Assembly (NCBI GenBank): GCA_964616855.1
Contig: CAZTUJ010000001.1
Span: 67,872-131,871 of the forward strand
DNA length: 64,000 bases
Direction of reading: 5' to 3'
DNA from: an uncultured Gammaproteobacteria bacterium
Lineage (GTDB): Bacteria > Patescibacteriota > Patescibacteriia > Patescibacteriales > UBA12465
The position numbers and the translations under genes are program-made. Positions 9,765-43,139 of the stretch are shown here, in pieces. How positions within the stretch are numbered: the stretch's first letter is position 1; every line of letters starts with the position of its first letter. The notes under the pieces are model-generated. The model was not told where the DNA came from and ran no database searches. It was given only the letters and a program-made list of their open reading frames with translations.

Positions 9765-9814
9765 TTTGAGTAATCTTGTTTTGTCCAAAGTTTTTAAAAC
9801 TGGCCAGATTACTT

Positions 9815-16400: not shown

Positions 16401-18734
16401 GTTTTTACAGATAGTGTTATTAAAAGTCCGACTAATGCCCCGACCGACTATCCCGCCGAAGGTAAAGCTTATTTACGCGTAATGGCCGGTAATATGATTT
16501 CCCCGCACTCTTATAATGCCCCTATTTCTATTCAGGCGGGTCAAGATTATTATTTAAATTTTTTGGTTAATACTAAGGGATCCGGTGTTGATGCCAAAGT
16601 CTGGGTTTATAATGCTGCTAATAATAATTTAATTACTTCGGCAACTTACAGCTCTATTAATGGCTGGGAAAGGCGAGTATTAAAGATTTCAGGAACAAGT
16701 TTAGTTGGTATTGGTTCCATTAGAGTTTACTTCGGCACCACTAGTATTAGCAAAGATGAGCGTTACGTCTATTTTGATGACATCAATATTGAGCCCGTGC
16801 TCCAGGTGGCCGGTGATAATGGCGTTAATAGTTATATTGCTAAAGAGTGCCGCCTCTATCCTACCCAAGACGCCACTTCTTGTACGAGTAAAAATAGCCA
16901 GGTTGTTAGTGATGGTTTAGTCGGCTATTGTTTACAGCACGACTTAGCCAATAAGAATGTCTGTTTGTTGTGGTATCCGGTTGATCAGATTAGTGCTGCT
17001 TCTAAGTCTGCCCGTTCTAACTTGGGTTATCAGGGCGCCTTCCCCCTTAACTATTGCACGGAGGCTAATGGTTATTTTACTCTAGTAGAAAAGAGAGTTA
17101 CCATCAAACTTGATGCCGCTCATAGTACTGCTGAAAATGAGTGGGGTGATGATAATTGCGAAACTCTTGCCGGTCGTTGTGGTAACACCTTAGACCCTAA
17201 CTATGATACCATTATTGAAACTAATCACGGTGATGTTTCCGCTTGGAGAAGGGTTTATTGTGTTCCGAGTCCAAGTCATCTCTTATTTATTAGTAGCCAG
17301 CGAACCGTTGGTGGTAATGATGCCTGTAGAAACAAAATTTTATATGAAGGCTGGGGAGTTTATAATGGTTTTCGCTTCGTTCAATCGGGGCAATATATTC
17401 CTGGCTGTGGTGGTAATTGTGACATTAACTGTGAGTCAGGCGACTGTTCTAATTTAAACGAGACCTTGAATGCTGATCCAAATGTTAGAGTTTATGATTA
17501 TAATTATCCCTCGGTTGATGAAGACGATTTGAAACTAGTATCTTCTTCCGATGAAAATGAGGTCTATTACCCAACGTGTAATCGTTTTGTTCAAGTAGTT
17601 GACTCAGCCGGTAATAATAAAGCCTGGGCTGGCCGTACCAGTAAGTTTAGTATTTATCCTTATGAGACCCCGACTTTTTTCCGAGATGAAGCTAATTATT
17701 ATGGCTCGGCTTGTTATTTGCCTGGTGATTGTATTGAAACTTGTGAGTGCAATGTTCATTGCGAATGTGATTTGGGCAATGAATATTGTTCAGCGCCCTG
17801 TGACGTGCCTGGCGATTGTTATGAATATGCTCCTGATCAAATTGTCCCTTGCGGTACTCCCGGTTCTTTACAAGATCCTACTGCCTTTAACTTTACTAAA
17901 TATGGCCGTCTCCGTGATTTAGTCCCTTTTGGGGCGGCTACTTTCCCAGATAATTTTAACATCTTTGATGCTGATCCGATTATGTTCCGTAGCCAGTACT
18001 CAAGTAAATTAGATCAGAAAGCCTTTGCCGGCCGTCCTTATGGCTGCAAGGGCACGGGTTGTGCCAATATTGGTTATTGTAGTTTGAACCCCCAGGTAAT
18101 TTGTCTTCTCGATACCACTACTAGTTCTACCACATCTTTAGTTGCTCAAAAATCTTGTGGTGGCGCTAACGGCACCTGTATTTCCTTGTGGAATGCTAGT
18201 AAATTGGTCAATAATTTCTATCCAGAAGATATTTTAAGGAACACTTTCTTAAAATCATTTGCTGGCTATAAATATAGTTCTAGTACTAGCGCTTATATTT
18301 CTGATACCCTGTCTACTTATACTCAGGCTACTGGTGGTTCTTATGCTACTTCTACTTATTTAGGTCAATGTGGTTCGGATGGCGCCCATTTTTCTTCAAA
18401 TGATTCTAGTTATTTGACTTATTGGTGTGCGGTTCGACCGAAAATAACTAATGTTAAGTTGAATGGACTCTCTTCTGGCACCGGTATGTTTGACGTCTCT
18501 CAGCCCGGTATTTATACCTTGACTTTCAACACCGCCATTGATATTGAGCAGCAACCTCTGCGAGATTTGATTATCGATTGGGGTGATAATTCAATTCAAA
18601 GTCTGGTTAATGAAGATCATCGTCCGGACGCCAATAATCCTCATAAACTTTATCATTTTTATCAAGGAGGTAGTGGTATACTTAAGATTGGTATTAGAGC
18701 CTCTGATAATTGGGGATTCTTCGCTAATTATTAG
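10482..18734 (+). CDS. giant (2750 aa) secreted Cys-rich surface protein
   Basis: A single uninterrupted ORF. Signal peptide ending SAQAQ. Nine copies of the motif C-x5-G-C-x2-[YFWLV]. Three segments end in jelly-roll/CBM-like strands (VRNLKLEM, FFLDNIVLTEI, VYFDDINIEPV). C-terminal PKD-like LIIDWGDNS. Confidence 0.8.
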   Translation: MSVKIMNKRFNFLANRQKLGAVAILAIIISSSFLISPQSAQAQLVTADTQTISQTFMQKVWDFLKKAYEKGGASAFQKVVRTALNKIAYDTATALGSGGEGQQPLFVTKDWGEYLTQIGDEAAGSFIEDAVNNWNDSDWDSEGKGSAKNEECTASYETCARGTFNTVTREWEGGCDIIQNSQEAAECEKKCQSALLRCGGVVTGSDGVTAPKSSRNVAVCQPSSISAKLTIAMGLVDYNRPKAPNCTASALVENWDSYIDRMTAFKEEDFLDKFAGIFNPVSNDLGIYMALRTDMTQKIATSVDSSKLKLNADKGWLDIRDIAGNPKGMPGDAATQAEMSKQGYVNNMATFSGDALIDAANVFLNQLALTAFNRYMSKLGEKTPDAVSINNPTSDPKIGYSEVAVRESAAQIIEPDFTVRADYDILSSLSMCRDRNNPGPAECVIDDKLMQGIVEKKTVAEAAKEGYLHKEWLFTSDFREGSYSLRNLQIMRKYRIVPLGWEVAASANKTATLVDLMSCFSNSDSYNEYTSNFDIRNQAWCRGLVDPNWVLKAPLNYCAKQGYSSQILNTSVIPTVDGNGNAADTIQITRAEDYCADDKTCIKEKADGSCEAYGYCQSERRTWNFDSKSCQPINNTCSSLINVSSNQKVAYLENTLDYANCNADTVGCKRYSLTGSYATSTGQVSWSSNPTANAYFNNKLGACSAGDEGCKEVLRVKPGWGSNLIMGADFANDKVGDALSNSLINNYWPVWATGNRAASIIDSSTLGGGSVGKAILLESTGNVASTTIGLYSDNAVSLIPDNLNILSGETYTLSADVYLIEGDKVHVVLGSDYLAAAQTVDKNAWRHVSITRSLKEKPLSEMSFSVVGYSTGPQVRFAVRNLKLEMTSWDSGFSVYGAYKVYEKIIPPYLAEACYMSNIPGDPDYRLRADAPAVCNSFARQCNRDEAGCESYAENSTGFTVAAQAVSSDYCDASCNGYDLYVSRANYFYSPFAEKIIPNNSRSCSAAAVGCSEFTNLDEVAAGGEKREYYTQLKQCIQPGPSCADFYTWEGTEESGYQLKSLVLKKDDAGDPAVTADDSQLCSEAIFNLPPSDPGFNPDCKQFYNKAGAISYHLKAATITCSDNCHNYRLSENNVDTSVTQAQCSGTDRFWSAASSACFVCKNGGVWNSEYNACIYQAIPNEGIKCSAAENGCREYNGSLGNNVKMVEAYSFEQGTDGWKGQCGDDARSSAVANVNNGKSLLYDRGSNYNNVNIQTECIQNNQVGFLDKFFGSANAAPASYIKQVVGRNVSQGNSYSLKFTASAPLDANVSFAFLSSQDEIVYFNASESDITGNITISGNSEWRTYELSLPELNHEVDGDEALIIVSDRDFFLDNIVLTEIRDRYYLIKNTSEVPDVCYYDMLDNYQGADYNLGCSLYNDRAGNNHYLRQFSRLCQESAVGCELMVDTANYDDYKPAVWHDENNNGVCDSNEVECVAVDGDRFFYAIYDESRRCNKADLGCSRLGESSSSGSALEWSDVFKRNNPNNYSQSLCAAADAGCEAWQYTDGSGLTYFKNPGNNACVYRTSTNPDKPGKAWYKVPVTRCDLNNNGSIDGTEKNLDICKTANDCANISPCLVDNNDYDCSVSYFKTVGFGGGGNQVPVPSLAAGLCESASSGCTEYIDPVSTFSSNVVYNPLVEMSANGQYLGWEMSGVSWSQDLIIEPNKLYIFSSGISAASTTIQNDLIINFPFGVSLLQEDNNFSTVASTSLRIPSNNPSKRFVFHSRGNTEATITGAWPGQEVVLKEAIIDYQFRQNVDKTTCNGIVNFDNGCVLFNERSVNGGAGLLSLSGGWNAAASIDGQSPVSCSAGSCSANRLVKVRPNRVCASWLDCLTYEVDPETNQRTCYALGECNSLNDNNECANFVRSSNQILASSSSDITKRDGYSVLNKLDLSGMREVGLNTEAHYDFEDSSQTLYCRLVTSTSSPCVFDNDVFTDSVIKSPTNAPTDYPAEGKAYLRVMAGNMISPHSYNAPISIQAGQDYYLNFLVNTKGSGVDAKVWVYNAANNNLITSATYSSINGWERRVLKISGTSLVGIGSIRVYFGTTSISKDERYVYFDDINIEPVLQVAGDNGVNSYIAKECRLYPTQDATSCTSKNSQVVSDGLVGYCLQHDLANKNVCLLWYPVDQISAASKSARSNLGYQGAFPLNYCTEANGYFTLVEKRVTIKLDAAHSTAENEWGDDNCETLAGRCGNTLDPNYDTIIETNHGDVSAWRRVYCVPSPSHLLFISSQRTVGGNDACRNKILYEGWGVYNGFRFVQSGQYIPGCGGNCDINCESGDCSNLNETLNADPNVRVYDYNYPSVDEDDLKLVSSSDENEVYYPTCNRFVQVVDSAGNNKAWAGRTSKFSIYPYETPTFFRDEANYYGSACYLPGDCIETCECNVHCECDLGNEYCSAPCDVPGDCYEYAPDQIVPCGTPGSLQDPTAFNFTKYGRLRDLVPFGAATFPDNFNIFDADPIMFRSQYSSKLDQKAFAGRPYGCKGTGCANIGYCSLNPQVICLLDTTTSSTTSLVAQKSCGGANGTCISLWNASKLVNNFYPEDILRNTFLKSFAGYKYSSSTSAYISDTLSTYTQATGGSYATSTYLGQCGSDGAHFSSNDSSYLTYWCAVRPKITNVKLNGLSSGTGMFDVSQPGIYTLTFNTAIDIEQQPLRDLIIDWGDNSIQSLVNEDHRPDANNPHKLYHFYQGGSGILKIGIRASDNWGFFANY

Positions 18735-30253: not shown

Positions 30254-31756
30254 ATGTCTAAAAAGTTTACTCTTTTTGTTGAAGATTATAATGTCCCACC
30301 CCACCCTTGGCTCCTTTGGAATGATGTTTTTGATAAGGGTTTGCGGCAGGAGACTAAAGGGAAATTATTTATTGATTCTTTGTTTATTTTCCGCAATGGC
30401 CAAGTATTTTGGGGGCCCGATGCTCAACAATTTGCCGCCGCTGGCGCTTATTTTCTTAAGCGTTTACAAGCAGAGCCGGCCTTATTAAAAGAAGTTGTTG
30501 GCCGACATTATTTAGGTTTCCGGAAAGTTAAAGAGTTTTCTCGCTTTTGCCGTTCTCTAAACTGGCAGAAATTATCAGCTACGGCTTTAGCTAAAGTTTA
30601 CGAACGTTTTTATGATATTTGGATTGAGATTGGTATTTGGGGGGTTATTCCTCAGTATGTGGAAATGGGCGAGAATAACTATTCTTTAATTGTCGAGAAA
30701 GAATTATCGCCGCTTCTTTCTAAATTTGGCGACCCCGCCCTTGTTTTCAGTCGCTTACTTAGCCCCACCAAGACCACTTATTTACGCTCGGAAATGGAAG
30801 CATCTTGGCGACTTTTGGCGAATTGGCAAACCGAGACCAAAAAACTCGCATCTTTGCGGACGGCCCGTTCTTGGCAAGATTTACCTTTAGGGCAAAGACG
30901 CGCCCTTCAATTATTATCTAAGCGTTTTGGCTGGTTGCAATATTACTACGATGGTCAGGCCACTAGTCCAGAATATTATTTTGAATTATTAAAGGGACGC
31001 TGGAAAATGAAGGCGGCTAAGGTTTTACTAACGAACAAGAGGGAGAGAGAAGAGCTGCAGGCTTGGCAAAAAAAAGTGGAGAAGACTTTAAGTGCCGCTG
31101 ATCGTCGCCGTGTTAATTTATTGCGCGATTTTTCTTTGATTAAAGAGCTACGTAAAGAAATGCAAATTTATTACCTTAACTACACGATGAGTCCTTGGTT
31201 TGCCGAACTAGGTCGGCGTTTATTTTGCTCGCAGACGCAGGCAAAATATTTGACGTCTCAAGAAATTAGGGATTTCTTGTATAAGAAAAAAAAGCCAAAT
31301 GTCGCCTCTTTAGCGGAGCGTTATCGTTTGTCTGCTTATTCTACCGTTAGCGGTAAAGATAAGGTTTCGGTGGGCACACAAGCGACCGCCTTTTTGAAGA
31401 TGATGAAAGTTCCTTCCTTAAAGATGCCGGCCGTTGATTCAATTTCCGGCCAGGTTGCTTATCCGGGTAAGGCCAAGGGCTTAGTTAAAATTGTTAACGC
31501 GGTGGCGGATATTAAAAAGTTCCAAGCGGGCGATATTTTGGTAAGTTTTTCTACTAATCCTTCACTAGTGCCAGCAATGAATCGGGCGGCGGCTATTATT
31601 ACTAATACCGGTGGCATCACTTGCCACGCCGCCATTGTCTCTCGAGAAATGAAAAAACCTTGTATAATTGGGACAAAAATTGCTACCAGAATTTTAAAGG
31701 ATGGTGATTTAGTAGAGGTGGATGCAGATAAAGGGGTGGTTAAAATTATTAAGTAA
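30254..31756 (+). CDS. swivel-domain paralog P1: helical N-terminal domain + PEP-utilising-enzyme mobile (phosphohistidine) domain
   Basis: C-terminus PGKAKGLVKIV...GDILVSFSTNPSLVPAMNRAAAIITNTGGITCHAAIVSREMKKPCIIGT...DGDLVEVDADKGVVKIIK. No ATP-grasp domain and no PEP/pyruvate TIM-barrel domain. Confidence 0.85.
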   Translation: MSKKFTLFVEDYNVPPHPWLLWNDVFDKGLRQETKGKLFIDSLFIFRNGQVFWGPDAQQFAAAGAYFLKRLQAEPALLKEVVGRHYLGFRKVKEFSRFCRSLNWQKLSATALAKVYERFYDIWIEIGIWGVIPQYVEMGENNYSLIVEKELSPLLSKFGDPALVFSRLLSPTKTTYLRSEMEASWRLLANWQTETKKLASLRTARSWQDLPLGQRRALQLLSKRFGWLQYYYDGQATSPEYYFELLKGRWKMKAAKVLLTNKREREELQAWQKKVEKTLSAADRRRVNLLRDFSLIKELRKEMQIYYLNYTMSPWFAELGRRLFCSQTQAKYLTSQEIRDFLYKKKKPNVASLAERYRLSAYSTVSGKDKVSVGTQATAFLKMMKVPSLKMPAVDSISGQVAYPGKAKGLVKIVNAVADIKKFQAGDILVSFSTNPSLVPAMNRAAAIITNTGGITCHAAIVSREMKKPCIIGTKIATRILKDGDLVEVDADKGVVKIIK

Positions 31757-31761
31757 TTCCT

Positions 31762-33093
31762 ATGTTTAAATATAAAGGGGTAAATTTAATTAAAACCGTC
31801 TATCGGCCCTATGTGCCTTTAATAAGTAGCTTGTTTATTAAAGGATTTAGCAATAAAAAGAGTTGGCGGGAGTTTACCGGTCTAGATTATCAATTAAGAG
31901 ATTTATTAGAAATTGATGGCGTTTATTATTATCCCGATTATCATCTTTCCGGCTTTTCTGGAGAGGTGGTTAAAAGAATTTTTTCTTCTAAGGAGCATTT
32001 TTTAAGGCTAAAGAAAGTAACTTTAGCCAAAGAAAAAAAATTATTATTAAAAAATCAAGAAAAAAATCTGAGAGATTTTTTTAAAGATTTTTTAGCTTAT
32101 CAGCCCGCGCTTGCCATTTATCATATCTGTGATGACTTAATTGAAGATAAAGTGCGCTCCGCCCTTTTAGAAAAAGTTTCAGCACAGGAAGCCGACCGTT
32201 TAATGTCCTTATTAAATTTACCAGTTAAGCCTAATCTGGATTATTTAATGAAGAGATGGTTTTTAAAATCTAAGAATGTTGATCGTTTTATTAAAAAATA
32301 TTCTTGGACTTTCTCTCGTTATGGTGAGCATCGTTTCTTAAACTACCAAGAAGCGTTGGGTCTTTTGGCGGAGTGGAGTCAGGATAAAAGCTTAAGCGGG
32401 GTTGATAAGAACAGGGCCGCTACTAAAAAAGCGATTTTTCGAGCTAAGAAGATTTTACAGAAAAAGGCTTATTATGTAGATATCATGCAGTTTTTTATCT
32501 ACTACCGCACTCACCGCACTGATATTATGAATAAAGTATTCTTTTCTTATTATGATCGATTAGTCCTTTTCGCGCATCAGATTGGCTTAAGTCATGAAGA
32601 ATTATTGCTTTGTTCTTATGATGAGCTAGTTTCTAGAAAAATTCCTAGCAAGAAAATTTTACAAGCCAGGAAGGCTGGTTCGGTTGTTTGTTTTAGTCGT
32701 GGCGAGACCACTATCGTAACCGGTGCTCGTATTAACTATTTTAGAAAGCTTTGCCTCCAGAAAGAGAAATTAGATGCTATCGGGGGCAGGGTGGCTTTCC
32801 CTGGAATTATTTCCGGTGTAGTTAGAGTCATCAAGAATCGATCAGATTTTCATAAATTTAAAAATAAAGAAATATTAGTAAGTTCCATGACAACTCCGAG
32901 TATGGTGCCAATTATGAAAAAAGCGGCTGCTTTTGTTACCGATGAGGGCGGCATCACTTGTCACGCCGCTATTTTAGCTAGGGAAATGAAGAAGCCTTGT
33001 ATTATCGGCACAAAAGTTGCCACTAAGGCCTTGAAAGATGGCGATTTTGTAGAGGTTGATGCGGATAAGGGGGTAGTTAAAATTATTAAGTAA
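31762..33093 (+). CDS. swivel-domain paralog P2
   Basis: C-terminus ...MTTPSMVPIMKKAAAFVTDEGGITCHAAILAREMKKPCIIGT...DGDFVEVDADKGVVKIIK. 5-nt gap from P1. Confidence 0.85.
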   Translation: MFKYKGVNLIKTVYRPYVPLISSLFIKGFSNKKSWREFTGLDYQLRDLLEIDGVYYYPDYHLSGFSGEVVKRIFSSKEHFLRLKKVTLAKEKKLLLKNQEKNLRDFFKDFLAYQPALAIYHICDDLIEDKVRSALLEKVSAQEADRLMSLLNLPVKPNLDYLMKRWFLKSKNVDRFIKKYSWTFSRYGEHRFLNYQEALGLLAEWSQDKSLSGVDKNRAATKKAIFRAKKILQKKAYYVDIMQFFIYYRTHRTDIMNKVFFSYYDRLVLFAHQIGLSHEELLLCSYDELVSRKIPSKKILQARKAGSVVCFSRGETTIVTGARINYFRKLCLQKEKLDAIGGRVAFPGIISGVVRVIKNRSDFHKFKNKEILVSSMTTPSMVPIMKKAAAFVTDEGGITCHAAILAREMKKPCIIGTKVATKALKDGDFVEVDADKGVVKIIK

Positions 33094-33098
33094 TTTCT

Positions 33099-34391
33099 AT
33101 GTCTGAGCTGATTAAAGAAAAAGTTTTGCATTATCATTGGGAGCCATGGCTGAAAAGAAATTTTTATGCTTTTATGCTATCTTTGATCGCCGGCTCATAT
33201 TCCCGCGCAGATTTTAAAAAATATGGTTTTGGTGATTGGGGTTTGAAAGCCTCTCTTTTTACAGAAGGGTCATGGTATTCTTCGCCTGAGATATTTGCGG
33301 AAGCGGAGCCAAGAATAGAGCGTTGGCTGGCTAATCATAAGATTGAGGAAATTTCGGATTTATTAGACAGTTTTTTAGAATTAAAGCGTAAAGAGATTAT
33401 TGATTTGTCTAAAAATAAAAAAGTAAGTTTAAAAAAGAAATTAGTTTATTTACAGAACACCTTTCATCAAGTTGGTTCCTTTATCTGGACGGCCCATATT
33501 TTAGAGCATGTTTTGTGGCGACAGCTACGAGCAGTAACGCCAAAGTATATTAAAGGTAATATTGATAAATATATAGGCGACGCTGCTTATCCTTTGAAAA
33601 AGAATGCTCTCGAGTTGATGGAGGTGGATATGCGCTCGGGAGTCGACTTAAAAATTATTTGGAAAAAGTATGCTTGGATGCGATCGCGTGATGGCTTCGC
33701 TCGCCCTTATAAATTATCAGAGTTAGTTGAGCATAAAGCGCAATTAAAACCACTAAAACATCATCGTTATCCGGTGATACCGCGCCCTCTGATTTTGCTT
33801 TATCAACAGGCACGGGAGTTAGTTTATCTGCGCACGAAGAGAACGGATGTTTTTTATGAGCTTTTGTTCTGGGCGCGCCCAATTTTTAAAGAAGCCGCTA
33901 GAAACCACGGCCTTTCTTTTCAAGATTTAAAATATTTTAGTTTTAATAGTTTGGTTTTAGGTCGCCCTCATCGTTATGGTCGCAATATTTCTTGTTTAGA
34001 TTTTGATGGCGATTTTATTATTATCGACGGGCCAGTTTTAACTAAAAAGACTCAATTAGAGGCATTAACAGATATTAAAGGCACAATCGCTCAGCCGGGT
34101 AAGGTGCGGGGTCGAGTGGTAGTGGTAAATAAGGTGAGTGAAACCATCAAGGTAAAGCCGGGTAATATTCTGGTTACTTATATGACTTCGCCTGATTTTT
34201 TGCCTGCCATGAAAAAAGCCGTTGCTTTTGTGACTGATGAAGGCGGCCTCACTTGTCACGCCGCCATTATTGCTCGAGAAATGAAAAAGCCCTGCGTTAT
34301 TGGTACAAAAATTGCCACTAGAGTTTTAAAGGATGGTGATTTAGTGGAGGTGGATGCGGATAAAGGAGTGGTTAGAATTATAAAATCTTAA
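33099..34391 (+). CDS. swivel-domain paralog P3
   Basis: C-terminus ...MTSPDFLPAMKKAVAFVTDEGGLTCHAAIIAREMKKPCVIGT...DGDLVEVDADKGVVRIIKS. 5-nt gap from P2. Confidence 0.85.
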   Translation: MSELIKEKVLHYHWEPWLKRNFYAFMLSLIAGSYSRADFKKYGFGDWGLKASLFTEGSWYSSPEIFAEAEPRIERWLANHKIEEISDLLDSFLELKRKEIIDLSKNKKVSLKKKLVYLQNTFHQVGSFIWTAHILEHVLWRQLRAVTPKYIKGNIDKYIGDAAYPLKKNALELMEVDMRSGVDLKIIWKKYAWMRSRDGFARPYKLSELVEHKAQLKPLKHHRYPVIPRPLILLYQQARELVYLRTKRTDVFYELLFWARPIFKEAARNHGLSFQDLKYFSFNSLVLGRPHRYGRNISCLDFDGDFIIIDGPVLTKKTQLEALTDIKGTIAQPGKVRGRVVVVNKVSETIKVKPGNILVTYMTSPDFLPAMKKAVAFVTDEGGLTCHAAIIAREMKKPCVIGTKIATRVLKDGDLVEVDADKGVVRIIKS

Positions 34392-34394
34392 TTT

Positions 34395-35828
34395 ATGGGA
34401 AGAGTATTACCAGATAATAATTTAGTAAACAAAATAATTGAAGATAAAGATAATTACTTTCAATTAGCTTCTCGCCCTTTTACAGTCCAGCGTTTTGAGA
34501 TTATTGGATTTTTTTCTTGGAAGTTGTTAAAGAGTAAAGTTTTTACTATGCCTTTAGCTAGCGGCTCTGATGGTTGCTGGTTAGAGAAAAAAATAACTTT
34601 AACTTCATATCATCGGCAGGGTCTGGCAATGTTGCGCCTAGGGGTTTGGTCTAAGCAAAAGAAGCATTATCTGTCGGCTTCTAAGCGTCTTGCTGTTGTT
34701 AGTAAAAAAGCAGCTCTTTGTCAGAGTAATCGTCACAGCTTATCTCTATTTTTTGAAAAATGGCAGGCTACTATTGATAATTTTTCCTATTATTTTATCG
34801 CTCCTTTCTGGGTAGAGGAATTTCTCTTTCCCAAACTACAGAAGCTTATTAAGAATGAAAAAGAGCTAGAGATAATTTCCAGTCCTGATCGTGTATTTTT
34901 TTATCAACATTTTCAAAAAGAGCTTTTAGCTATGGGTAAGCGCATCGATTATCTATACTTAATAGATAAATATGCGGCATTAACTGAGTATTCTTTAAAA
35001 GAGAAACTCCTTGATAGGGCAGAAATAAAGAGACGTTATCAGGAGATTATTGAACAGAATTTATCTGAAAACATTATCCAAACAGAAAAGAAGGCGCGGG
35101 AAAATAAAAGATTATTTGTAGCTTTACACCGTCGTTTGCCCGCCAAAACCGCCCTCTTGGCCGATATTGTTCATGAGTACGTTTCTATTCGCACGGAAAG
35201 AATTGAATTCTATCAACAAGCTTTAGTGAGAGTTAGATATTTCTATAAATTATTAGCGAAGTTAATTGCTCGTGTGCATCCAGGTTTTTCTTATCTTGAT
35301 GCTGTTTCATTAACGAGCGCAGAATTAAGATCTTTTTTGGCTGGAAATAATGATTTGCCTTTCGCGGAAATTAGAAAAAGATCTCAGCGGCAATTTGCTT
35401 TATTGTACGAGCAGGGCAGAGAAAAATCTGTTTTTATTTATCAGCCGCACAATCTGAAAAAATTGAGCCAAGCTTTTTTAAAAGCTTCTCGACCAGCTAG
35501 CGGTTTAATCTGGGGAATCATCGTTTCTAAAGGAAAGGCGCGGGGCCGGGTGAGAATAATTTATCGCCCCGACCAGTTTAAGAATTTTAAGAAAGGAGAA
35601 ATTTTAGTATCTAATTACACCTCTCCCGCTTTTATGCCTATTATTAAGCAGTCGGCAGCGATTATTACCGATGAAGGGGGAATTACTTCTCATGCCGCCA
35701 TTGTTTCTCGAGAACTGGGTGTTCCTTGCGTGACTGGAGCTAAAATTGCTACTAAAGTTTTGAAAGATGGTGATTTAGTGGAGGTGGATGCGGATAAGGG
35801 GATAATTAGAATTGTTAAAGCTAAATAG
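34395..35828 (+). CDS. swivel-domain paralog P4
   Basis: C-terminus ...YTSPAFMPIIKQSAAIITDEGGITSHAAIVSRELGVPCVTGA...DGDLVEVDADKGIIRIVKAK. 3-nt gap from P3. Confidence 0.85.
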   Translation: MGRVLPDNNLVNKIIEDKDNYFQLASRPFTVQRFEIIGFFSWKLLKSKVFTMPLASGSDGCWLEKKITLTSYHRQGLAMLRLGVWSKQKKHYLSASKRLAVVSKKAALCQSNRHSLSLFFEKWQATIDNFSYYFIAPFWVEEFLFPKLQKLIKNEKELEIISSPDRVFFYQHFQKELLAMGKRIDYLYLIDKYAALTEYSLKEKLLDRAEIKRRYQEIIEQNLSENIIQTEKKARENKRLFVALHRRLPAKTALLADIVHEYVSIRTERIEFYQQALVRVRYFYKLLAKLIARVHPGFSYLDAVSLTSAELRSFLAGNNDLPFAEIRKRSQRQFALLYEQGREKSVFIYQPHNLKKLSQAFLKASRPASGLIWGIIVSKGKARGRVRIIYRPDQFKNFKKGEILVSNYTSPAFMPIIKQSAAIITDEGGITSHAAIVSRELGVPCVTGAKIATKVLKDGDLVEVDADKGIIRIVKAK

Positions 35829-35853
35829 AATTTGGGTATAGTTTATCAAAATG

Positions 35854-35883
35854 AAAAACCGGCGTCCTAGGGAGCCGGTTTTT
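35854..35883. terminator. bidirectional hairpin terminator
   Basis: aaaaaccggcgtcc-tag-ggagccggttttt between convergent P4 (+) and the histidine phosphatase gene (-). Confidence 0.7.
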
Positions 35884-35900
35884 GGGTGTACGAGTAAATT

Positions 35901-36491
35901 TTAGATTTCAAAGCCGACGGTGTCGGCGAACGATAGTTTTCCCTTATTTTCATTAAAGATAAAGCCGCTTAGTTCGGCTAACTTTATATCCCGGGGGAGG
36001 TATTCATTGGTGTCGATGGCGTAGGCGAGCCATTCCACTAAGGGGGTGTGACTTACCATAATGATTATTTCACCATCAAGGGCGGTGTTGAACATTGATT
36101 TCAGGGAAGAAATCATGGCTTGTTGGGTCGTTTGGATAAAATCCGGATTATACTGTTGAAAGGCCTGATACCAGGTGGTGTTTTTGGCTTTAGCTTCCAA
36201 CTCTTTGTTGCTACTGAATTCAGCAAACATCTCGGAACTGCCAAAGCGCGGATCGGCTGTAATATAGGCACGGCAACGGCAGAGGCCATTTTCATCAATA
36301 AAGTGCTCGAAAGCCTTTATTGTTTGCCGGGTGCGTTTAAGGGCGCTTCCAAGGTGGAGGATGACCATTTTTTTGGCAATCAGTTCATTAAGTCCAGGAA
36401 TACCATGGCGTTTGATTTCGGCAATTTGGTCGGCGGCGATAAGGTCGCCGTCTTTACGACCGTGGCGGATAACAATTAGGTGTTTCATCAT
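35901..36491 (-). CDS. histidine phosphatase superfamily protein (SixA/PGAM-like, 196 aa)
   Basis: The N-terminal HLIVIRHGRKDGD carries the RHG catalytic motif. Distal MVSHTPLVEWL. Encoded antisense, in the middle of the swivel-paralog array. Confidence 0.7.
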   Translation of the reverse strand: MMKHLIVIRHGRKDGDLIAADQIAEIKRHGIPGLNELIAKKMVILHLGSALKRTRQTIKAFEHFIDENGLCRCRAYITADPRFGSSEMFAEFSSNKELEAKAKNTTWYQAFQQYNPDFIQTTQQAMISSLKSMFNTALDGEIIIMVSHTPLVEWLAYAIDTNEYLPRDIKLAELSGFIFNENKGKLSFADTVGFEI

Positions 36492-36599
36492 TAATCTGTT
36501 TTGGTTTTAGGTTTATGTTATTGTAAGGTTCGACAATCAGATTATTGTATAATATTATTAATATTTTGTCAATATTAAGGGTAATTAAGTCACCGTATC

Positions 36600-36627
36600 T
36601 TGACTTTTTTTGATTATTTGTTAATAT
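36600..36627 (+). promoter_or_regulatory. sigma70-like promoter upstream of P5
   Basis: TTGACT (36600-36605), a 16-nt spacer, then TAATAT (36622-36627). An inverted repeat GCAATA-AA-TATTGC follows at 36639-36652. Confidence 0.4.
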
Positions 36628-36667
36628 TTGTTTATAAGGCAATAAATATTGCTTATCAAACAAATAT

Positions 36668-38548
36668 ATGAAAAATCTTTTTAAATCGCAGACTGCTTAC
36701 GAAATTTTAGAACTACTTAGCCGTAATGAAGGCCTAAAGTTCTATCTTGGGGAAATTGCTTCCTCTTTAAAGAAGAACAGCGCTAATGTTTCCCGGGAGT
36801 TAAGCGGCTTAATGGCTGAGGGCATTATTTCTACGGAAACAGCGGGTAAGAAGAAATATTATTTTTTAAACAGCCAGTATCAGGCGCTAAGCGAACTGAA
36901 GGCCTTGTTGGTAAAAAGTCGTCAGCAGAATTTAGAACAGGCTTTTAAGCGTGATTGGATTTTAGCGGAAGAAATCATGAATGCTAATCCTTGGTTTATG
37001 GCCATTCCTTTCTATTGCTTTACCAATCAGTTTGCCCAGCCTGGCGGTCGCGCCTATCAGCAAATGTGTTGTATCTATCGCGGCTATAATCTTTGGTTTT
37101 ATTTTGATAAGCAAGATGCTTTTGCGGTGGGTGAACATTTGGTTAACAAGTTTGTGGCCGATATTGATTTTATGGAAGAAGTTAATGTGAAGATTCGCTT
37201 TTTTGCGGATAAATTAAATAAGGTGGTGGCTAAAATCCCCGAAAGTGGTTTGCAAAAATTAACTAAAGATAAATTGTGGCAATATTATCAAGATCACGAA
37301 GACATTCATTTAGAATATTATCAGTATGGCTGGATCCCGGTAGCGGCGGATATGTTTGGTGATAATTTAACTGAACGGGGCAAGAAAATTTTGTCTGATT
37401 TAGGCGTTAAAAGCGAGGAGATTGAAGAGTCTTTAGCTCTTTTAACGCAACCAGACAAAGATTCAATGTTAAAAGAAGAGCAGGATAATTTAATCAGAAT
37501 CGGAATCATGATTCAGCAAAATCCTGAGCAATTTGCGATTTTTCGGGAGTTATTTCGCAAATTTAAAGAAGAAGATGTGAAATTTTTTGGCCTCTATACT
37601 CACAGTGAAGAGTACGAAGCCAAATTCTCGGAAGTAGTCTCAGCACTTAAGGAAAAAATTTCTCCCGAAATTATGAAGAAGCTGGAAGAACACTACCATC
37701 GTTATTTTTATACGAAATATATTTATACAGAAGAGCAGGGCGTCTATAACTTTGAGCACTATCTGAAAGAATTAGTCCGCTTGGTTAACGGTGATCATGA
37801 CTTAAAAGCTTCTTTAAGCGAACAAGCACGACGGACACAAGCTTTACTTAACTCTAGGGCTTTGCTGGTGAAAAAAATAAAATTATCCTCAGGCTTAAAT
37901 CGTTTTTTTGCGGCTTGGGGTGATTTTATGGTGACAAAAATTTATCGCCGCTATGCTCAGCTGTTTGCTTTATATAAAACTACTTTTATTTTAGAAGAAA
38001 TAGCTGCTCGCTTAGAAATTACTTTAAAAGAATTACGCTTTATGACTTCTAAAGAGATTAAGGCGGCTCTTTTTGAAGATCGGCTTGATCGGGAAGAATT
38101 GAAGCGAAGAGCGTCCTTATCTTTATATTACACCGCCAAGGATACGGAAACTTATTATAGTGGAGAAGAGGCTAAGCAGATTATTGAAAAATATATTCAG
38201 CACGATCAAGAGGAGGAAGTTTCGGAATTACGTGGGCAATGCGGTTGCCGGGGTCAGGCTAAGGGCAGGGTGAGAATTGTTAATGTCACCGCCGATATTG
38301 CTAAAATGCAAGAAGGGGATATTTTGGTCTCCATTTCCACCCAGCCCGATCTTTTACCGGCCATGAAAAAGGCGGCCGCTTTTGTCACGGACCAGGGCGG
38401 AGTTACCTCTCATGCCGCCATTGTAGCCAGAGAGATGCATAAACCCTGCGTTATTGCCACTAAAATCGCCACTAAAGCCCTAAAAGATGGGGATTTGGTC
38501 TTGGTTGATGCGGACAAGGGTTTAGTTAAGCTTATCGCTAGGGCCTAA
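36668..38548 (+). CDS. swivel-domain paralog P5 with N-terminal winged-helix (ArsR-like) DNA-binding domain
   Basis: N-terminus AYEILELLSRNEGLKFYLGEIASSLKKNSANVSRELSGLMAEGIISTETAGKKKYYFLN. C-terminus STQPDLLPAMKKAAAFVTDQGGVTSHAAIVAREMHKPCVIAT. Confidence 0.8.
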   Translation: MKNLFKSQTAYEILELLSRNEGLKFYLGEIASSLKKNSANVSRELSGLMAEGIISTETAGKKKYYFLNSQYQALSELKALLVKSRQQNLEQAFKRDWILAEEIMNANPWFMAIPFYCFTNQFAQPGGRAYQQMCCIYRGYNLWFYFDKQDAFAVGEHLVNKFVADIDFMEEVNVKIRFFADKLNKVVAKIPESGLQKLTKDKLWQYYQDHEDIHLEYYQYGWIPVAADMFGDNLTERGKKILSDLGVKSEEIEESLALLTQPDKDSMLKEEQDNLIRIGIMIQQNPEQFAIFRELFRKFKEEDVKFFGLYTHSEEYEAKFSEVVSALKEKISPEIMKKLEEHYHRYFYTKYIYTEEQGVYNFEHYLKELVRLVNGDHDLKASLSEQARRTQALLNSRALLVKKIKLSSGLNRFFAAWGDFMVTKIYRRYAQLFALYKTTFILEEIAARLEITLKELRFMTSKEIKAALFEDRLDREELKRRASLSLYYTAKDTETYYSGEEAKQIIEKYIQHDQEEEVSELRGQCGCRGQAKGRVRIVNVTADIAKMQEGDILVSISTQPDLLPAMKKAAAFVTDQGGVTSHAAIVAREMHKPCVIATKIATKALKDGDLVLVDADKGLVKLIARA

Positions 38549-38577
38549 ATTAATATAGTATTATTTACCATATATAG

Positions 38578-38606
38578 TTGACAATTATACCATATATTTA
38601 TATAAT
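38578..38606 (+). promoter_or_regulatory. consensus sigma70 promoter upstream of P6
   Basis: TTGACA (38578-38583), a 17-nt spacer, then TATAAT (38601-38606). Direct repeats TACCATATAT at 38566-38575 and 38588-38597 bracket the -35 element. Confidence 0.6.
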
Positions 38607-38641
38607 TTTCTTGGATAATAAGAAAATTATTTCATAAATAT

Positions 38642-40456
38642 ATGCTTAAATTAATCATTAATTCTGAGACGCGCTTAGCCCTTTTGTCTTTTTTCTTCCG
38701 GCAAACAACGGATAAATATTACGCGCGTGAAGTGGCAAAGTCTTTGAATTTAGATCAGGCAAACGTTCATAAAGAATTGGCTAATTTAGTGAAAGGCGGC
38801 TTTCTAGCTACTACCGTGATTGATGGTAAAAAATATTTCTTTGCTAACCCAGAGGGACAGTTTTTTGATGAGCTGGTTTCCATGTTAAAGAAATACAATA
38901 GCAGTAATGCTGGCGAAGAAATCTTTTGTTTAGAGGAGATGCCTAATTACTACCCCTTGTTTACTTCTCCTGGCTGGAACGCCCATATGGCTGCTCGTTT
39001 TTCTGAATTTTATGGCTTTAAATCTAGCCTCCGCACCCTCGTTACCATTTTTCAAAATAATTTTTGTCAGCTTTTGACCGCCAAAGAAGATTTTTATGAG
39101 TTAAGCCGAGAAATTTTTGAAAGCGTTAAGGCTGATTCTGGTTGGCGAGAGCGCTACATCGCTGATTTAGGAGATAGGGCAGCACAATTATATAAAGCAG
39201 CGGCAAAGTTGAAAAAAACCAACCTTAAAGCTTTAAGTGACGCCGAGTTAGCCGATGTTTTTGAAAGTTTTTTTCAAATCTATCAAGATTTACACCTTTT
39301 ACATATTCCCCAAACAGTTTTAGATTTTGGTGATGGCACTTTTTCCAAGTACCTAATGACTTATTTGGATAAGAAGGTGAAGGCGGCCGGTTTATCGATG
39401 GGTGATACTTTTTCTACCTTAACCACACCCCTGGAATCATCCCGCTCAGCCGAGGAATATCGGGCTCTACTCTTGATTCTGAAAGAAATTATTGCCGATG
39501 AAAAATTAAAACAGTACTTTAGTTTAACGGAGTCTCGAATTATTGCTTTAGAGATTAATGATGTTAGTCGGTTAATTGCCGCAAAGTTGAAAAAGCACGT
39601 GGATGAGTTTGGTTCTTTAGGCTACGGCATGGTTGGCCCTTCTTGGAATCTAGAATATTTTATTGATATTCTCAGTAGTTTAATTAGACAAAGAATTGAT
39701 CCTGATACTGCCCTGAGGGAGATTGATAATAATAGATTAAATATTGAAAAACATCAGCGCGAATTAGAGAAAAAGCTAAGGATTGATGATAAGCATCTGG
39801 GTATCTTTAAATTTGCTCGTGATCTCGTTTTTACTAAAGGTTCAAGAAAGGACGCGATGTTCAATGCCATTGCTGTTTTAGAAAATGTTTACCGAGAAGT
39901 CTCGCGCCGTCATTATTTGTCTTTACGTCAGGTTCGTTACCTTAATCCTTCGGAGTTAATTCAATTACTCCGCGGCCACAGTGTTTCCGCTGAATTATTG
40001 AATGAACGTTTTAATTTTAGCATCTACTATTCCAGTACTAAAATTCCTTCGGATTTATTTTTAGTCGGCGAAAAAGCGCAAGCTTTCATTGCCAAATTGA
40101 ATATTATTAAAGAAGAAATTGCTGATGTGAAGATGTTGGCAGGCGATTGCGCTTCGCCCGGTCGGGCGCGCGGGGAAGCAAAAGTGATTAACGTTATTGC
40201 GGATATGGCCAAGATGAAAGTCGGCGATATCTTAATCTCTATTGCCACTACCCCCGATTTAGTGCCAGCGATTAAGAAAGCCTCTGCTATCGTGACCGAC
40301 GTCGGGGGTATTACCTGTCATGCGGCTATTATTTCCCGAGAACTAGGCATTCCTTGTGTGGTTGGTACTAAAATTGCGACCAAGGTAATTACTGACGGGA
40401 TGCTTCTGGATGTTGACGCTACTCACGGTAAAGTTGATATGATCGGCAAGGACTAA
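38642..40456 (+). CDS. swivel-domain paralog P6 with N-terminal winged-helix DNA-binding domain
   Basis: N-terminus RLALLSFFFRQTTDKYYAREVAKSLNLDQANVHKELANLVKGGFLATTVIDGKKYFFAN. C-terminus ATTPDLVPAIKKASAIVTDVGGITCHAAIISRELGIPCVVGT. Confidence 0.8.
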   Translation: MLKLIINSETRLALLSFFFRQTTDKYYAREVAKSLNLDQANVHKELANLVKGGFLATTVIDGKKYFFANPEGQFFDELVSMLKKYNSSNAGEEIFCLEEMPNYYPLFTSPGWNAHMAARFSEFYGFKSSLRTLVTIFQNNFCQLLTAKEDFYELSREIFESVKADSGWRERYIADLGDRAAQLYKAAAKLKKTNLKALSDAELADVFESFFQIYQDLHLLHIPQTVLDFGDGTFSKYLMTYLDKKVKAAGLSMGDTFSTLTTPLESSRSAEEYRALLLILKEIIADEKLKQYFSLTESRIIALEINDVSRLIAAKLKKHVDEFGSLGYGMVGPSWNLEYFIDILSSLIRQRIDPDTALREIDNNRLNIEKHQRELEKKLRIDDKHLGIFKFARDLVFTKGSRKDAMFNAIAVLENVYREVSRRHYLSLRQVRYLNPSELIQLLRGHSVSAELLNERFNFSIYYSSTKIPSDLFLVGEKAQAFIAKLNIIKEEIADVKMLAGDCASPGRARGEAKVINVIADMAKMKVGDILISIATTPDLVPAIKKASAIVTDVGGITCHAAIISRELGIPCVVGTKIATKVITDGMLLDVDATHGKVDMIGKD

Positions 40457-40523
40457 AGGGTTATAATTTGGAGTTTACTAAGAGAATGATATAATATTAA
40501 GTATATAATTATTAATTGTTTTT

Positions 40524-41462
40524 ATGATTACAAAAACATTTTCTAAAATTGGCAAGGCTGACGCTGCCATTGCTGGCGGCAAAGGGGCTTCTTTGGGTGA
40601 AATGACCAAGGCAAAAATTCCGGTGCCGCCGGGCTTTGTAATTTTAGCGGAAGCTTTCGATCGTTTTTTAATAGAAACTGATTTAATGCAAGAGCTTAGC
40701 TCTTTGTTGAACAAGGTGAATTATAATGATATTAACTCGGTGGATGGAGCTTCCTCCAGTATTCGTGCCCTGATTGCCCAGGCGAAGATGCCGGCTGATT
40801 TGGCAAAAGAAATTGTTGCTGAGTTTAAGAAATTAAAAACCACTTTTGTTGCTGTTCGTTCTAGTGCTACGGCAGAAGATTCTTCGGCCGCTTCTTGGGC
40901 AGGGGAATTAGAGACGTATCTTAACACTACGGATAAAACTTTATTAAATAATGTAAAACTTTGTTGGTCTTCTTTATTTACTCCCCGCGCCATCTTCTAT
41001 CGTCATGAGAAAAAAATGTTAAAGACTAAAGTGAGTGTAGCGGTGGTGGTGCAAAAGATGGTTAACTCAGAAATTTCTGGTATTGCTTTCACGGTTCATC
41101 CTGTGACCCAAGATCGCCGGCAGATGATTATTGAAGCTGGTTATGGTCTAGGCGAGGCCATTGTCTCTGGTTCAGTGACGCCTGACTCTTACGTTCTAGA
41201 TAAGCAGGACTTTTCGCTTTTAGATATTAATATTGCCGAACAAGAACGTCAGATTGTTAAATGTTTGCGTAAGGGCGTTAAATGGACGCCGGTAGCCAAG
41301 AATTTACAGGCTAAACAGAAGTTAAGTGGTCTGCAGATTGTGGCTTTAGGTAAGATTTGTGCCGGTATTGAAAAGCACTATGGCTTTCCTTGCGACATTG
41401 AGTGGGCTTATGCCCAAAAGAAGTTTTATATCACCCAAAGCCGTCCCATTACTACCCTCTAA
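40524..41462 (+). CDS. stand-alone PPDK_N / PEP-synthase-type ATP-grasp nucleotide-binding domain protein
   Basis: 312 aa with GGKGASLGEM, VPPGFVI, VAVRSSATAEDS, SGIAFTVHP and the terminal DIEWAYAQKKFYITQSRPITTL. The protein ends where the PPDK_N domain ends. A possible own promoter, TGaTATAAT, sits at 40487-40495. Confidence 0.85.
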   Translation: MITKTFSKIGKADAAIAGGKGASLGEMTKAKIPVPPGFVILAEAFDRFLIETDLMQELSSLLNKVNYNDINSVDGASSSIRALIAQAKMPADLAKEIVAEFKKLKTTFVAVRSSATAEDSSAASWAGELETYLNTTDKTLLNNVKLCWSSLFTPRAIFYRHEKKMLKTKVSVAVVVQKMVNSEISGIAFTVHPVTQDRRQMIIEAGYGLGEAIVSGSVTPDSYVLDKQDFSLLDINIAEQERQIVKCLRKGVKWTPVAKNLQAKQKLSGLQIVALGKICAGIEKHYGFPCDIEWAYAQKKFYITQSRPITTL

Positions 41463-41483
41463 AATCATAGTTTTTAGACACGA

Positions 41484-41522
41484 AAAAAGCCGTCCTTATT
41501 AGGGCGGCTTTATTGTTTTTTA
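41484..41522 (+). terminator. rho-independent terminator after the ATP-grasp gene
   Basis: aaaaaagccgtcct-tatt-agggcggc, then a T-rich tail. Confidence 0.65.
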
Positions 41523-41636
41523 AGCCTTTTTTTAGACATTTTTCCGCTTTCCAATTTTTGGGGAAATATGCTAAAATGAAGATAATGCCCGAAACAGATT
41601 TTTTTTGCTTTTTATTTTTAGGTTTTTTTGTTTTTC

Positions 41637-43139
41637 ATGTTTGATTATCTGCAACAATTTAATAAATTGCCCAAGGAATTAAGGGATAAAGTTTCCTCGC
41701 CTGCAGCGATGGAAATTTTGTCTTCTCTGGAGGGAAAATATGGAGTTAGTTTGGCTATGGTTGTTATGCAGATTATGGTCAAGCAGATTCCTGTGCGCAA
41801 CCTGACTGCCTATTTTATGACCGAAATGGGTTTAAGCGCGGATAAAGCTCAGTCCTTAAACCAAGAACTACAGGAACGTCTTTTATTTTCGGTTTCCACT
41901 TATCTCGGGCTAAAGCCTTTGCCAGTATTAAGTCCAGAGGAAAAAGAATTACAAGTTTTGATGAAGGATAATGCGATTGTTTTGCCGAGTCAGGATTTAA
42001 TGACCCGTTGTCGACAGATTCTCATGACTTTTCGTAAGGGTATTCGTACCAAAATTGATACTCGGGCGGCTTTAGAAAGGGCTGTTAGTCAAGGTGGCCT
42101 AGGTCTTGATGCTGCTGCTGCCGATCGCTTACTTCGAGCCTTGGAACAACCAGTGAGTAATAATTTTTTAGCCCCTCCAGCGGTATCGGCAGCTATTACT
42201 GATTTAGTTAATAAAGCGGAAGCTGGTGCTTATGATTTCAAAGCAGCTTTAGCTAGCGGTCAGATCAAGGCTCCCGCCGCTCTCGCGGATAAATTTAAAG
42301 CCGCGCCTATAAAGTTAGACCCCAGCCATGAGTTAGAAGCCCCTGACCAAGAATTATCTTTACCTACGCCCCCAGTACCTTATATGGCTCCACCCGTAGC
42401 AGTTCCAACTCCGCCGTCCCCGTCTTTAACTCTGGAGTCGCTGTCAGCGCCTGTTGGTAATTTAACAAATACGGTTGTTAAGGAGGTTAAGCCTTTGGTG
42501 ATGGAGACTCCCGTGGCTGTAAAAACCGATAATTTAGAAAATGATAAAAACCAATTTGTTGCCAATGAATTAAAGCCGGCGCTAGAGGCAGAAGCTTCTT
42601 TTAAGAAAGCACCGGTGGCCAGTGCAGGCTTATGGGCGAAATTATTTAAAGGTAAGTCGCCAAAACCTGATGATTCTTTAGGTAAAATTATTTCTTCGAG
42701 TAGTCATTTGGAGGCGGCGGTACTGGCTGCTACTCAGGCAGCGACAATTTCTCCACGACCGGCAGCTTCTAGCGAGACTCGGACAAGGATGGAAGATGTG
42801 CGTTCTCGGCCAAAAGTAATGGGCCCCTTGGAAGAGTTGAGATATTTAGATTTAACTAATTTTCGACGTTTGGGCAATAATCCTAAAGAAATTACCGCTA
42901 AGATTGTTATGAAAATTAGGTTATTAGAAAAAGATGGCTATGATCGCATGGTGGAAGGAGTGCAGTCCTGGCGTCAAAGTCCTGTTAATCGTATTTATGT
43001 TCGTTTGGCGCAAGAAGCGGTGGCTAAGGGTATGACTTTGCGCGAGATTATTGCTGCCCGTCAGGCAGATAATAAAGAAACTCTAAGCATGGATGAAATT
43101 GAAGCCATTGTCGCGATGAATAGCCAGCTAATGTTTTAA
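41637..43139 (+). CDS. hypothetical protein with Pro/Ala-rich central linker
   Basis: Roughly 500-aa ORF. ATG at 41637 is preferred over the TTG at 41628. The central region reads PTPPVPYMAPPVAVPTPPSPS. First gene of the PrgI/VirB4 cluster. Confidence 0.5.
   Translation: MFDYLQQFNKLPKELRDKVSSPAAMEILSSLEGKYGVSLAMVVMQIMVKQIPVRNLTAYFMTEMGLSADKAQSLNQELQERLLFSVSTYLGLKPLPVLSPEEKELQVLMKDNAIVLPSQDLMTRCRQILMTFRKGIRTKIDTRAALERAVSQGGLGLDAAAADRLLRALEQPVSNNFLAPPAVSAAITDLVNKAEAGAYDFKAALASGQIKAPAALADKFKAAPIKLDPSHELEAPDQELSLPTPPVPYMAPPVAVPTPPSPSLTLESLSAPVGNLTNTVVKEVKPLVMETPVAVKTDNLENDKNQFVANELKPALEAEASFKKAPVASAGLWAKLFKGKSPKPDDSLGKIISSSSHLEAAVLAATQAATISPRPAASSETRTRMEDVRSRPKVMGPLEELRYLDLTNFRRLGNNPKEITAKIVMKIRLLEKDGYDRMVEGVQSWRQSPVNRIYVRLAQEAVAKGMTLREIIAARQADNKETLSMDEIEAIVAMNSQLMF

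Follow-up and report, generated by a model that had tools for sequence, protein, structure and literature searches.

Two winged-helix swivel proteins of a Patescibacterium as candidate dikinase subunits that control their own promoters

P5 and P6 are neighbouring genes in a stretch of Patescibacteria DNA (64,000 nucleotides of contig CAZTUJ010000001.1, assembly GCA_964616855.1; hereafter the window), and each encodes a protein with an N-terminal winged helix-turn-helix (wHTH) domain and a C-terminal phosphohistidine swivel domain. A gene for an ATP-grasp protein follows them. We consider it rather probable that P5 and P6 are trigger enzymes, i.e., dikinase subunits that bind conserved operators at their own promoters and repress the unit made up of P5, P6, and the ATP-grasp gene. 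Such proteins are best described as combining two known kinds, the two-component small-molecule dikinase and the trigger-enzyme repressor. We infer DNA binding by the wHTH domains, its repressive sign, and the action of an effector from the features presented below, and by analogy with known trigger enzymes the binding may be coupled to the substrate or the phospho-state of the enzyme part.

The first-pass annotation of this DNA had placed both open reading frames (ORFs) correctly. The protein-coding parts of the module are these:

36668..38548, + strand: P5 gene, 626 aa, wHTH plus helical domain like that of rifampin phosphotransferase (RPH) plus swivel domain (Pfam, AlphaFold2 [AF2], Foldseek)
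36668..36946, + strand: P5 wHTH, residues 1-93 (HTH_5 score, PDB profile matches, AF2 topology, Foldseek)
38225..38545, + strand: P5 swivel (PEP-utilizers mobile) domain (PF00391, E 6.8e-26; His582 codon at 38411-38413)
38642..40456, + strand: P6 gene, 604 aa, architecture as in P5 (wHTH at ~38642-38902; His560 codon at 40319-40321)
40524..41462, + strand: stand-alone ATP-grasp (PPDK_N) protein, HpeI/PpsB-like partner (PF01326, E 8.9e-96)

A full-length alignment of P5 and P6 shows 28% identity. They are the last two of six tandem swivel paralogs in the window (P1-P4, P5, and P6), each of which ends in Pfam PF00391 (E 1e-22 to 1e-27), and in the paralog alignment only these two carry some 90 extra N-terminal residues that P1-P4 lack.

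Sequence profiles and structure models together confirm that these extra segments are wHTH domains, as the first-pass annotation had proposed in calling them ArsR-like: they both score and fold as such. Taken in isolation, the P5 domain reached 23.9 bits against Pfam HTH_5 (cut-off 22 bits); full-length P5 scored 19.9 bits, under that cut-off, and the Pfam scan returned no match for the wHTH region of P6. The score against NCBIfam HTH_metalloreg was 28 bits (cut-off 55 bits), and direct single-sequence searches of the PDB with the two N-termini gave weak matches (E 0.02-0.3). In the PDB, profiles of the P5-type and P6-type domains found hardly anything but MarR and ArsR/SmtB regulators (best E values 1e-4 and 5e-4), and up to 34 of 44 scanned family members match a given wHTH-type Pfam model. 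On these profiles the domain belongs to the wHTH clan and is no clear member of either ArsR or MarR. Winged-helix models of PADLOC (PDC-M05A, Csa3, and CasR) match P5 and P6 as well (E 8e-11 and 7e-13). A role in anti-phage defence was considered and rejected, as the PADLOC matches are confined to the wHTH part and none occur in the kinase parts or the neighbouring genes.

The full-length AlphaFold model of P5 has a pLDDT of 88.3 and a pTM of 0.78 and places helices at residues 8-19 and 27-34, a recognition helix at 38-50, a wing of two strands (54-59 and 62-67), and a linker helix at 74-93. The model of the P6 N-terminus (pLDDT 82.9) has the same H1-H2-H3-beta-hairpin topology. Foldseek aligned the P6 domain with AdcR, HlyU, SqrR, CzrA, and MepR (TM-score up to 0.73, rmsd ~2 A); for P5, wHTH regulators match residues 1-90 and rank after the matches to the swivel domain and RPH. 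The recognition helix reads ANVSREL in the P5 family and ANVHKEL in the P6 family, and each version is kept within its own family.

For the remainder of both proteins, sequence and structure models best support a substrate-binding, phospho-carrier subunit of a split small-molecule dikinase. The P5 model found its best Foldseek match in RPH (5fbu, E 6.5e-11, ~600 aligned columns, TMq 0.48), and the swivel domains of pyruvate phosphate dikinase (PPDK) and Enzyme I (EI) were also matched by the rest of P5. The swivel domains that the first-pass annotation saw behind the wHTH segments were recovered as PF00391 in P5 (E 7e-26) and P6 (E 9e-22) with the catalytic histidine intact, and all paralogs (n = 6) keep this histidine of the GGxT[SC]HAA motif. 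The wider T/SxxGGxxxH motif reads TDQGGVTSH582 in P5 and TDVGGITCH560 in P6, and His582 of P5 is invariant across 43 aligned family members. Middle parts of the paralogs gave weak, partial NCBIfam matches to the substrate-binding regions of RPH and PigC/RedH.

The name “phosphoenolpyruvate synthase/pyruvate phosphate dikinase”, which some pipelines use, can mislead, because P5 and P6 lack the phosphoenolpyruvate (PEP)/pyruvate-binding TIM-barrel domain: PF00391 is the only domain in the Pfam scan, and the C-terminus is the swivel domain. Scores against the NCBIfam PEP-synthase models were ~120-130 bits, where the cut-offs are 598-740 bits. An identity as PEP synthase or pyruvate phosphate dikinase was thus rejected on both the missing domain and the low scores. 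A split design, in which an ATP-grasp protein works with a substrate-binding plus swivel subunit, is documented together with its mechanism for HpeHI, CreHI, and PpsAB (PMC12167813).

All repeats listed by the first-pass annotation, and the TTGACA between two of them, were found where it had put them, and the operators proved to be kept in related genomes and there, at very high specificity, before wHTH-bearing genes. The elements themselves had to be redrawn, as follows:

36600..36627, + strand: P5 promoter, -35 TTGACT (36600-05), 16-nt spacer with TG, -10 TAATAT (36622-27) (consensus scan; layout kept in orthologs)
36628..36663, no strand: P5-type operator, four alternating half-sites (consensus scans over loci)
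38555..38571, no strand: P6-type operator palindrome ATAGTA-ttatt-TACCAT (conserved in orthologs; composite pattern)
38578..38606, + strand: P6 promoter, perfect TTGACA-17-TATAAT (12/12 consensus match)
38602..38630, no strand: perfect 11-bp inverted repeat ATAATTTTCTT-ggataat-AAGAAAATTAT (overlaps the P6 -10; reaches the ATG imperfectly, 38594-38641)

The inverted repeat proposed as the P5 operator, GCAATAAATATTGC at 36639-36652, is conserved but is merely the middle of a 36-bp double palindrome with four half-sites (TTGTTT ata AGGCAA taaata TTGCTT atc AAACAA). This element directly abuts the -10, and its 3′ end lies 4 nt before the ATG. Exact matches to TTGYYTNNNARRCAA occur only twice in the window, both within the P5 operator, and neither a second operator nor a further exact half-palindrome was found there.

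Conservation of the P5 operator was surveyed in 87 related Patescibacteria loci, 46 from species-representative genomes and 41 from metagenomes. Before P5 orthologs the order is TTGACa, 16-17 nt, TAtTAT, TTGTYT-N3-ARACAA-N6-TTGTYT-N3-ARACAA, ~4 nt, and ATG; the promoter part is kept before ~25 orthologs, and the operator layout is represented by 24 distinct sequences from orthologs down to ~50% protein identity. When the 36-bp consensus was scanned on a 24-point scale over the window and the 46 loci (809,144 positions), 25 sites scored at least 21, and all 25 were upstream of wHTH-bearing P5 orthologs. The out-of-sample scan covered 354,486 positions of the 41 metagenome loci, which had been fetched through P6. 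It gave 13 sites scoring at least 22, each of them 4-6 nt before an ORF starting MKNLFKS, and none scoring 20-21. Pooled over 1.16 million positions, 38 of 38 high-scoring copies thus precede wHTH-bearing P5 orthologs, and the motif is missing from all inspected regions upstream of P5-like genes without a wHTH (n = 12). In two loci, L018 (2375-2761) and L019 (~9700-10000), a GIY-YIG-nuclease-like ORF of 128 aa stands between the P5 promoter-operator and the P5 gene and looks like an insertion into the P5 leader.

The direct repeats proposed as the P6 operator (TACCATATAT at 38566-75 and 38588-97, on either side of TTGACA at 38578-83) are conserved too, but they represent two of three half-sites in an arrangement of a palindrome plus one. 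ATAGTA (38555-60) is the left half-site of the palindrome, the first TACCATATAT copy supplies the right half, and the second supplies the spacer half-site TACCAT (38588-93). The palindrome sits just upstream of the -35, and the third half-site is inside the promoter spacer. Orthologs down to ~44% identity share the layout ATWGTA-N5-TACHAT, ~6 nt, TTGACA, 4 nt, (T/A)ACHAY, and -10, with ATWGTA-N5-TACHAT at the equivalent place in ~23 distinct upstream regions. In 2.33 Mb the composite pattern matched 26 times (shuffled sequence gave 5-6 matches), and 25 of these matches immediately precede a wHTH-bearing P6 gene. P6-like genes without a wHTH (L009-L011 and L013) lack the P6 site too, so a gain or a loss of the DNA-binding head has taken place in the P6 lineage.

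In most genomes a TTGT-N7-ACAA core is common to the P5-type and P6-type operators, which fits a single ancestor of both wHTH/operator pairs. Cross-talk between the P5 and P6 regulators is possible in some genomes. In the lineage of the window the P6 site has drifted to TAGT-N7-ACCA.

Intergenic DNA around these repeats has 14-22% G+C. Judged on the window alone the repeats are marginal, and it is the comparison of loci that carries the case. The 6-bp P5 palindrome fails to reach significance there (even a perfect inverted repeat of 8 bp has P = 0.13), and chance probabilities are P = 0.06 for the 10-bp direct repeat and P = 0.013 for the 11-bp inverted repeat.

The third proposed operator, TTCTT-N7-AAGAA, is present but belongs to a different element that is conserved in structure. 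It is the core of the perfect 11-bp inverted repeat (38602-12/38620-30), which as RNA would form a stable hairpin burying the P6 AUG (dG -17.5 kcal/mol, z -5.7). Among 32 orthologous leaders, 13 have a perfect repeat of 8-19 bp within the last 55 nt ahead of the ATG; the sequences are unrelated, and 12 of these repeats are 11 bp or longer. The left arm includes the P6 -10, and the hairpin can therefore form only in transcripts reading through from P5. A U-run follows the repeat in some orthologs, terminator-like and overlapping the next promoter; the leader repeat may be a P5 terminator or a translation block overlapping the P6 promoter.

In the proposed mechanism, the ATP-grasp protein would take phosphate from ATP and load it onto the swivel histidine (His582 of P5, His560 of P6), and the swivel domain would pass it on to a substrate bound in the RPH-like helical domain. 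Through its wHTH, each protein would bind as a dimer to the palindromic operator of its own gene. For P5 this would mean four half-sites, two copies of TTGTYT-N3-ARACAA whose centres are 21 bp apart; they extend from the -10 as far as the start codon, and initiation would thus be blocked while P5 is bound. P6 would cover the palindrome at the -35 and the third half-site in the spacer of its perfect consensus promoter. Operator position favours repression: the P5 site lies over the start, and the P6 site surrounds the -35 and spacer of a promoter that is perfect as it stands. Both proteins may repress the unit, including the one ATP-grasp subunit encoded beside six swivel paralogs. Binding of substrate by the enzyme part, or an altered phospho-state there, would release the operator, in the manner of BirA, NadR, and RbkR. 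Recognition helix and operator are both particular to each wHTH family, which implies that specificity tracks the protein family.

Several observations weigh against P5 and P6 being trigger enzymes of this kind. Absence of operators before the wHTH-less P5-like relatives is weak evidence only that the operator belongs to the wHTH, because about half of these genes directly follow another swivel gene within an operon and so have no promoter to themselves. We infer co-transcription of the ATP-grasp gene with P5 and P6, but the 67-nt gap between P6 and this gene contains -10-like hexamers, so it may have some independent transcription. The transcription starts are predicted ones, and the AF2 model of P5 is a monomer. 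Five family members weakly match the O-methyltransferase dimerisation domain (Pfam PF08100), and some wHTH domains in enzymes act only in dimerisation. The central P5 half-site pair may also fold as a small hairpin in the 5′ untranslated region (5′UTR; dG -5.4 kcal/mol, z -2.4).

The weak hairpin and the PF08100 matches are also what speaks for a rival account, in which the elements act as RNA (5′UTR hairpins, a P5 terminator) or bind another factor and the wHTH is a dimerisation or protein-interaction module. The P6 leader repeat speaks for it as well, being conserved in structure and not in sequence and able to sequester the AUG in read-through RNA. We find this account very doubtful, as the P5 and P6 half-sites are conserved in sequence and not in pairing alone, with TTG and CAA of the P5 half-sites kept at 83-100% per position. 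Mismatched P5 half-site positions comprise 32 G.T and 25 A.C pairs, and on these counts, which lack a sense-strand G.U bias, RNA hairpins were rejected as an explanation of the P5 element. All P5 half-site pairings score alike because the four half-sites have one consensus. Rfam gave no credible match in 35800-41700. Half-site 1, which abuts the -10, and the P6 palindrome, upstream of the -35, both precede the predicted starts, so neither should be transcribed from these promoters. Position, sequence conservation, the lack of G.U bias, and the lack of an Rfam match are why we read the P5 and P6 elements as protein-binding operators. Moreover, each of the two wHTH subfamilies is found together with a motif particular to it, and the recognition helices are the most conserved stretch of the domain, which speaks against a module for dimerisation alone.

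It seems quite improbable that the wHTH tethers the dikinase to the chromosome so that it can phosphorylate a DNA-associated or nucleic-acid substrate, with the conserved sites as loading sites. The intact enzyme part with its invariant catalytic histidine would suit such a role, as would the repeated fusion of the same core to DNA-binding domains; a parallel is the targeting of glucan water dikinases by carbohydrate-binding modules. However, each locus of 12-21 kb has only one site, as does the 64-kb window, and the site always falls exactly between -10 and start codon of the gene for the protein itself, which is a signature of autoregulation and not of a genome-wide target. We give similarly little credence to P5 and P6 being pure one-component regulators whose dikinase-like part senses a ligand without catalytic turnover. 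Many regulators do have sensor domains derived from enzymes, and P5 and P6 belong to a self-regulated unit that P1-P4 are not part of. Against this, neither the catalytic histidine nor any other defined position of the T-x-x-G-G-x-T-S/C-H-A-A motif varies in P5, P6, or the aligned family, and in several genomes (L020, L021, and L029) the ATP-grasp protein has no partner other than the wHTH protein, which must be the enzyme there. Unlikely in our judgement, too, is a new phosphorelay, in which the ATP-grasp protein charges the swivel histidine and the phosphohistidine state, set by ATP supply and acceptor availability, gates DNA binding by the wHTH. Were it to hold, a regulator dependent on histidine phosphorylation would have been assembled from dikinase parts in bacteria with few classical signalling systems, and P5 and P6 would set the level of an ATP-grasp subunit apparently common to six paralogous kinases.

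The nearest known parallel to such a phosphorelay is found in transcriptional regulators with phosphotransferase system (PTS) regulation domains (PRDs), such as MtlR, LicR, and LevR, whose activity is set by histidine phosphorylation and whose phosphate comes from EI, a swivel-domain member of the PEP-utilising superfamily. Their phosphohistidines are on PRD or EII-like domains and are charged from PEP via EI and HPr, whereas in P5 and P6 the swivel itself is fused to the DNA-binding domain and an ATP-grasp protein is the proposed donor. Pfam and NCBIfam scans found no PRD in either protein.

The trigger enzymes BirA, NadR, and the archaeal riboflavin kinase and regulator RbkR each carry an N-terminal (winged) HTH on an ATP- or CTP-dependent enzyme and repress their own pathway according to ligand state. 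RbkR (PDB 5trd) is among the structural matches of the P5 model (rank 49). The enzyme folds of all three are unrelated to P5 and P6, so the likeness is one of function and not of homology, and they have neither a phosphohistidine swivel nor a separate ATP-loading subunit. Fold, profile-level similarity, and palindromic operators over their own promoters link P5 and P6 to the ArsR/SmtB and MarR repressors. Unlike these free-standing dimeric regulators, the P5 and P6 wHTH consists of ~70 residues plus one helix with no evident metal or ligand site, and its nearest sequence relatives are the N-termini of ~190-aa proteins (some with a nucleotidyltransferase) and PADLOC PDC-M05A.

On the enzyme side, P5 and P6 share with HpeHI, CreHI, the phenylphosphate synthase PpsAB, and their single-chain relative RPH the helical substrate-binding part and the C-terminal swivel with T/SxxGGxxxH, and with the first three the separate ATP-grasp subunit. 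No characterised member of this group carries a DNA-binding domain. P5 and RPH have only 12-15% sequence identity, one ATP-grasp gene stands here beside six paralogous carrier subunits, and the host is a reduced-genome Patescibacterium and not a degrader of aromatic compounds.

Patescibacteria have tiny genomes and little-known gene regulation, and P5 and P6 offer two candidate regulator-operator pairs with base-level operator predictions kept in many lineages. If the trigger-enzyme reading is true, the dikinase/phosphohistidine-swivel family would be one more of the few enzyme groups that also serve as transcription factors. It also suggests a route of control for an array of paralogous small-molecule kinases with apparently one ATP-loading subunit. 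The pipeline name discussed above may lead to spurious gluconeogenic steps when metabolism is reconstructed from genomes of the candidate phyla radiation (CPR).

The best relatives of P5 and P6 are from Patescibacteria (CPR), the closest being labelled Candidatus Falkowbacteria. Among the 120 best matches of P5, clustered at 90% identity, 100 clusters of ~600-660 aa have 43-96% identity and at least 94% query coverage, including the wHTH; P6-type full-length proteins form ~50 clusters at the same identity. A separate exhaustive search at 50% clustering gave ~12 full-length fused clusters and many ~190-aa proteins that have the wHTH alone in common, of which two of the eight checked combine it with a nucleotidyltransferase domain. 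The first-pass annotation called the fusion unusual, which is fair in comparison with characterised proteins but not for Patescibacteria metagenomes, where it is common and has already been labelled automatically (“phosphohistidine swiveling domain / ArsR family regulator” at JGI, “winged helix-turn-helix domain-containing protein” at NCBI). Full-text literature searches returned no description of an HTH-swivel fusion and yielded only the HpeHI work for the split dikinase and a resistome survey counting rph-like genes in CPR genomes; a paper on the neighbourhood of the Patescibacteria type IV secretion system (T4SS) does not mention these genes.

Other architectures of the same core exist. Related proteins of ~540 aa have no wHTH, one protein (P0120) carries an XRE-type HTH (HTH_3, E 6e-18) in place of the wHTH and represents an independent fusion, and in another (P0178) the ATP-grasp domain is part of the same chain, as in RPH. 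A protein labelled Woesearchaeota (P0105) has another N-terminal extension with no Pfam match.

In the closer relatives among the 46 loci, synteny runs from PfkB, AhcY, MetK, a cytidylyltransferase-like gene, 1-6 swivel paralogs, and a histidine-phosphatase-like gene to orf196 (minus strand), P5, P6, ATP-grasp, orf503, PrgI, orf227, and VirB4. The most persistent pair is a wHTH-bearing P5 followed by the ATP-grasp gene, which overlap in L021, L029, and L030, and in many loci the ATP-grasp gene adjoins or overlaps P5 or P6 orthologs. P5 is the sole swivel protein near the ATP-grasp gene in L020, L021, and L029, and in L020, L023, and L029 the module is minimal, consisting of operator, wHTH subunit, and ATP-grasp gene alone. 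Arrays of 2-8 paralogs with helical and swivel domains are widespread in Patescibacteria (window 30254-41462; loci L002-L046), usually with at most one stand-alone ATP-grasp gene per fetched stretch and often beside T4SS-like genes (PrgI, VirB4) and genes of the S-adenosylmethionine cycle.

The remaining features around P5 and P6 in the window are:

30254..35828, + strand: P1-P4, four paralogs with helical domain and swivel, no wHTH (upstream operon; PF00391 in 4/4; alignment without the N-terminal domain)
35901..36491, - strand: orf196, divergent 196-aa gene, family unassigned (promoter TTGACA-17-TACAAT at 36572 to 36544)
41486..41511, + strand: intrinsic-terminator-like hairpin and T-run (11-bp stem, 6 G-C pairs; closes the P5-P6-ATP-grasp unit)

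The N-terminus of orf196 (MKHLIVIRHGRK) includes an RHG motif. A reading as a histidine phosphatase was set aside, as no Pfam or PDB sequence match supports it. The gene is conserved beside P5 in many loci, and its near-consensus promoter is likewise kept. Elsewhere in the window, a very large ORF of 2750 aa extends over 10482-18734 on the + strand.

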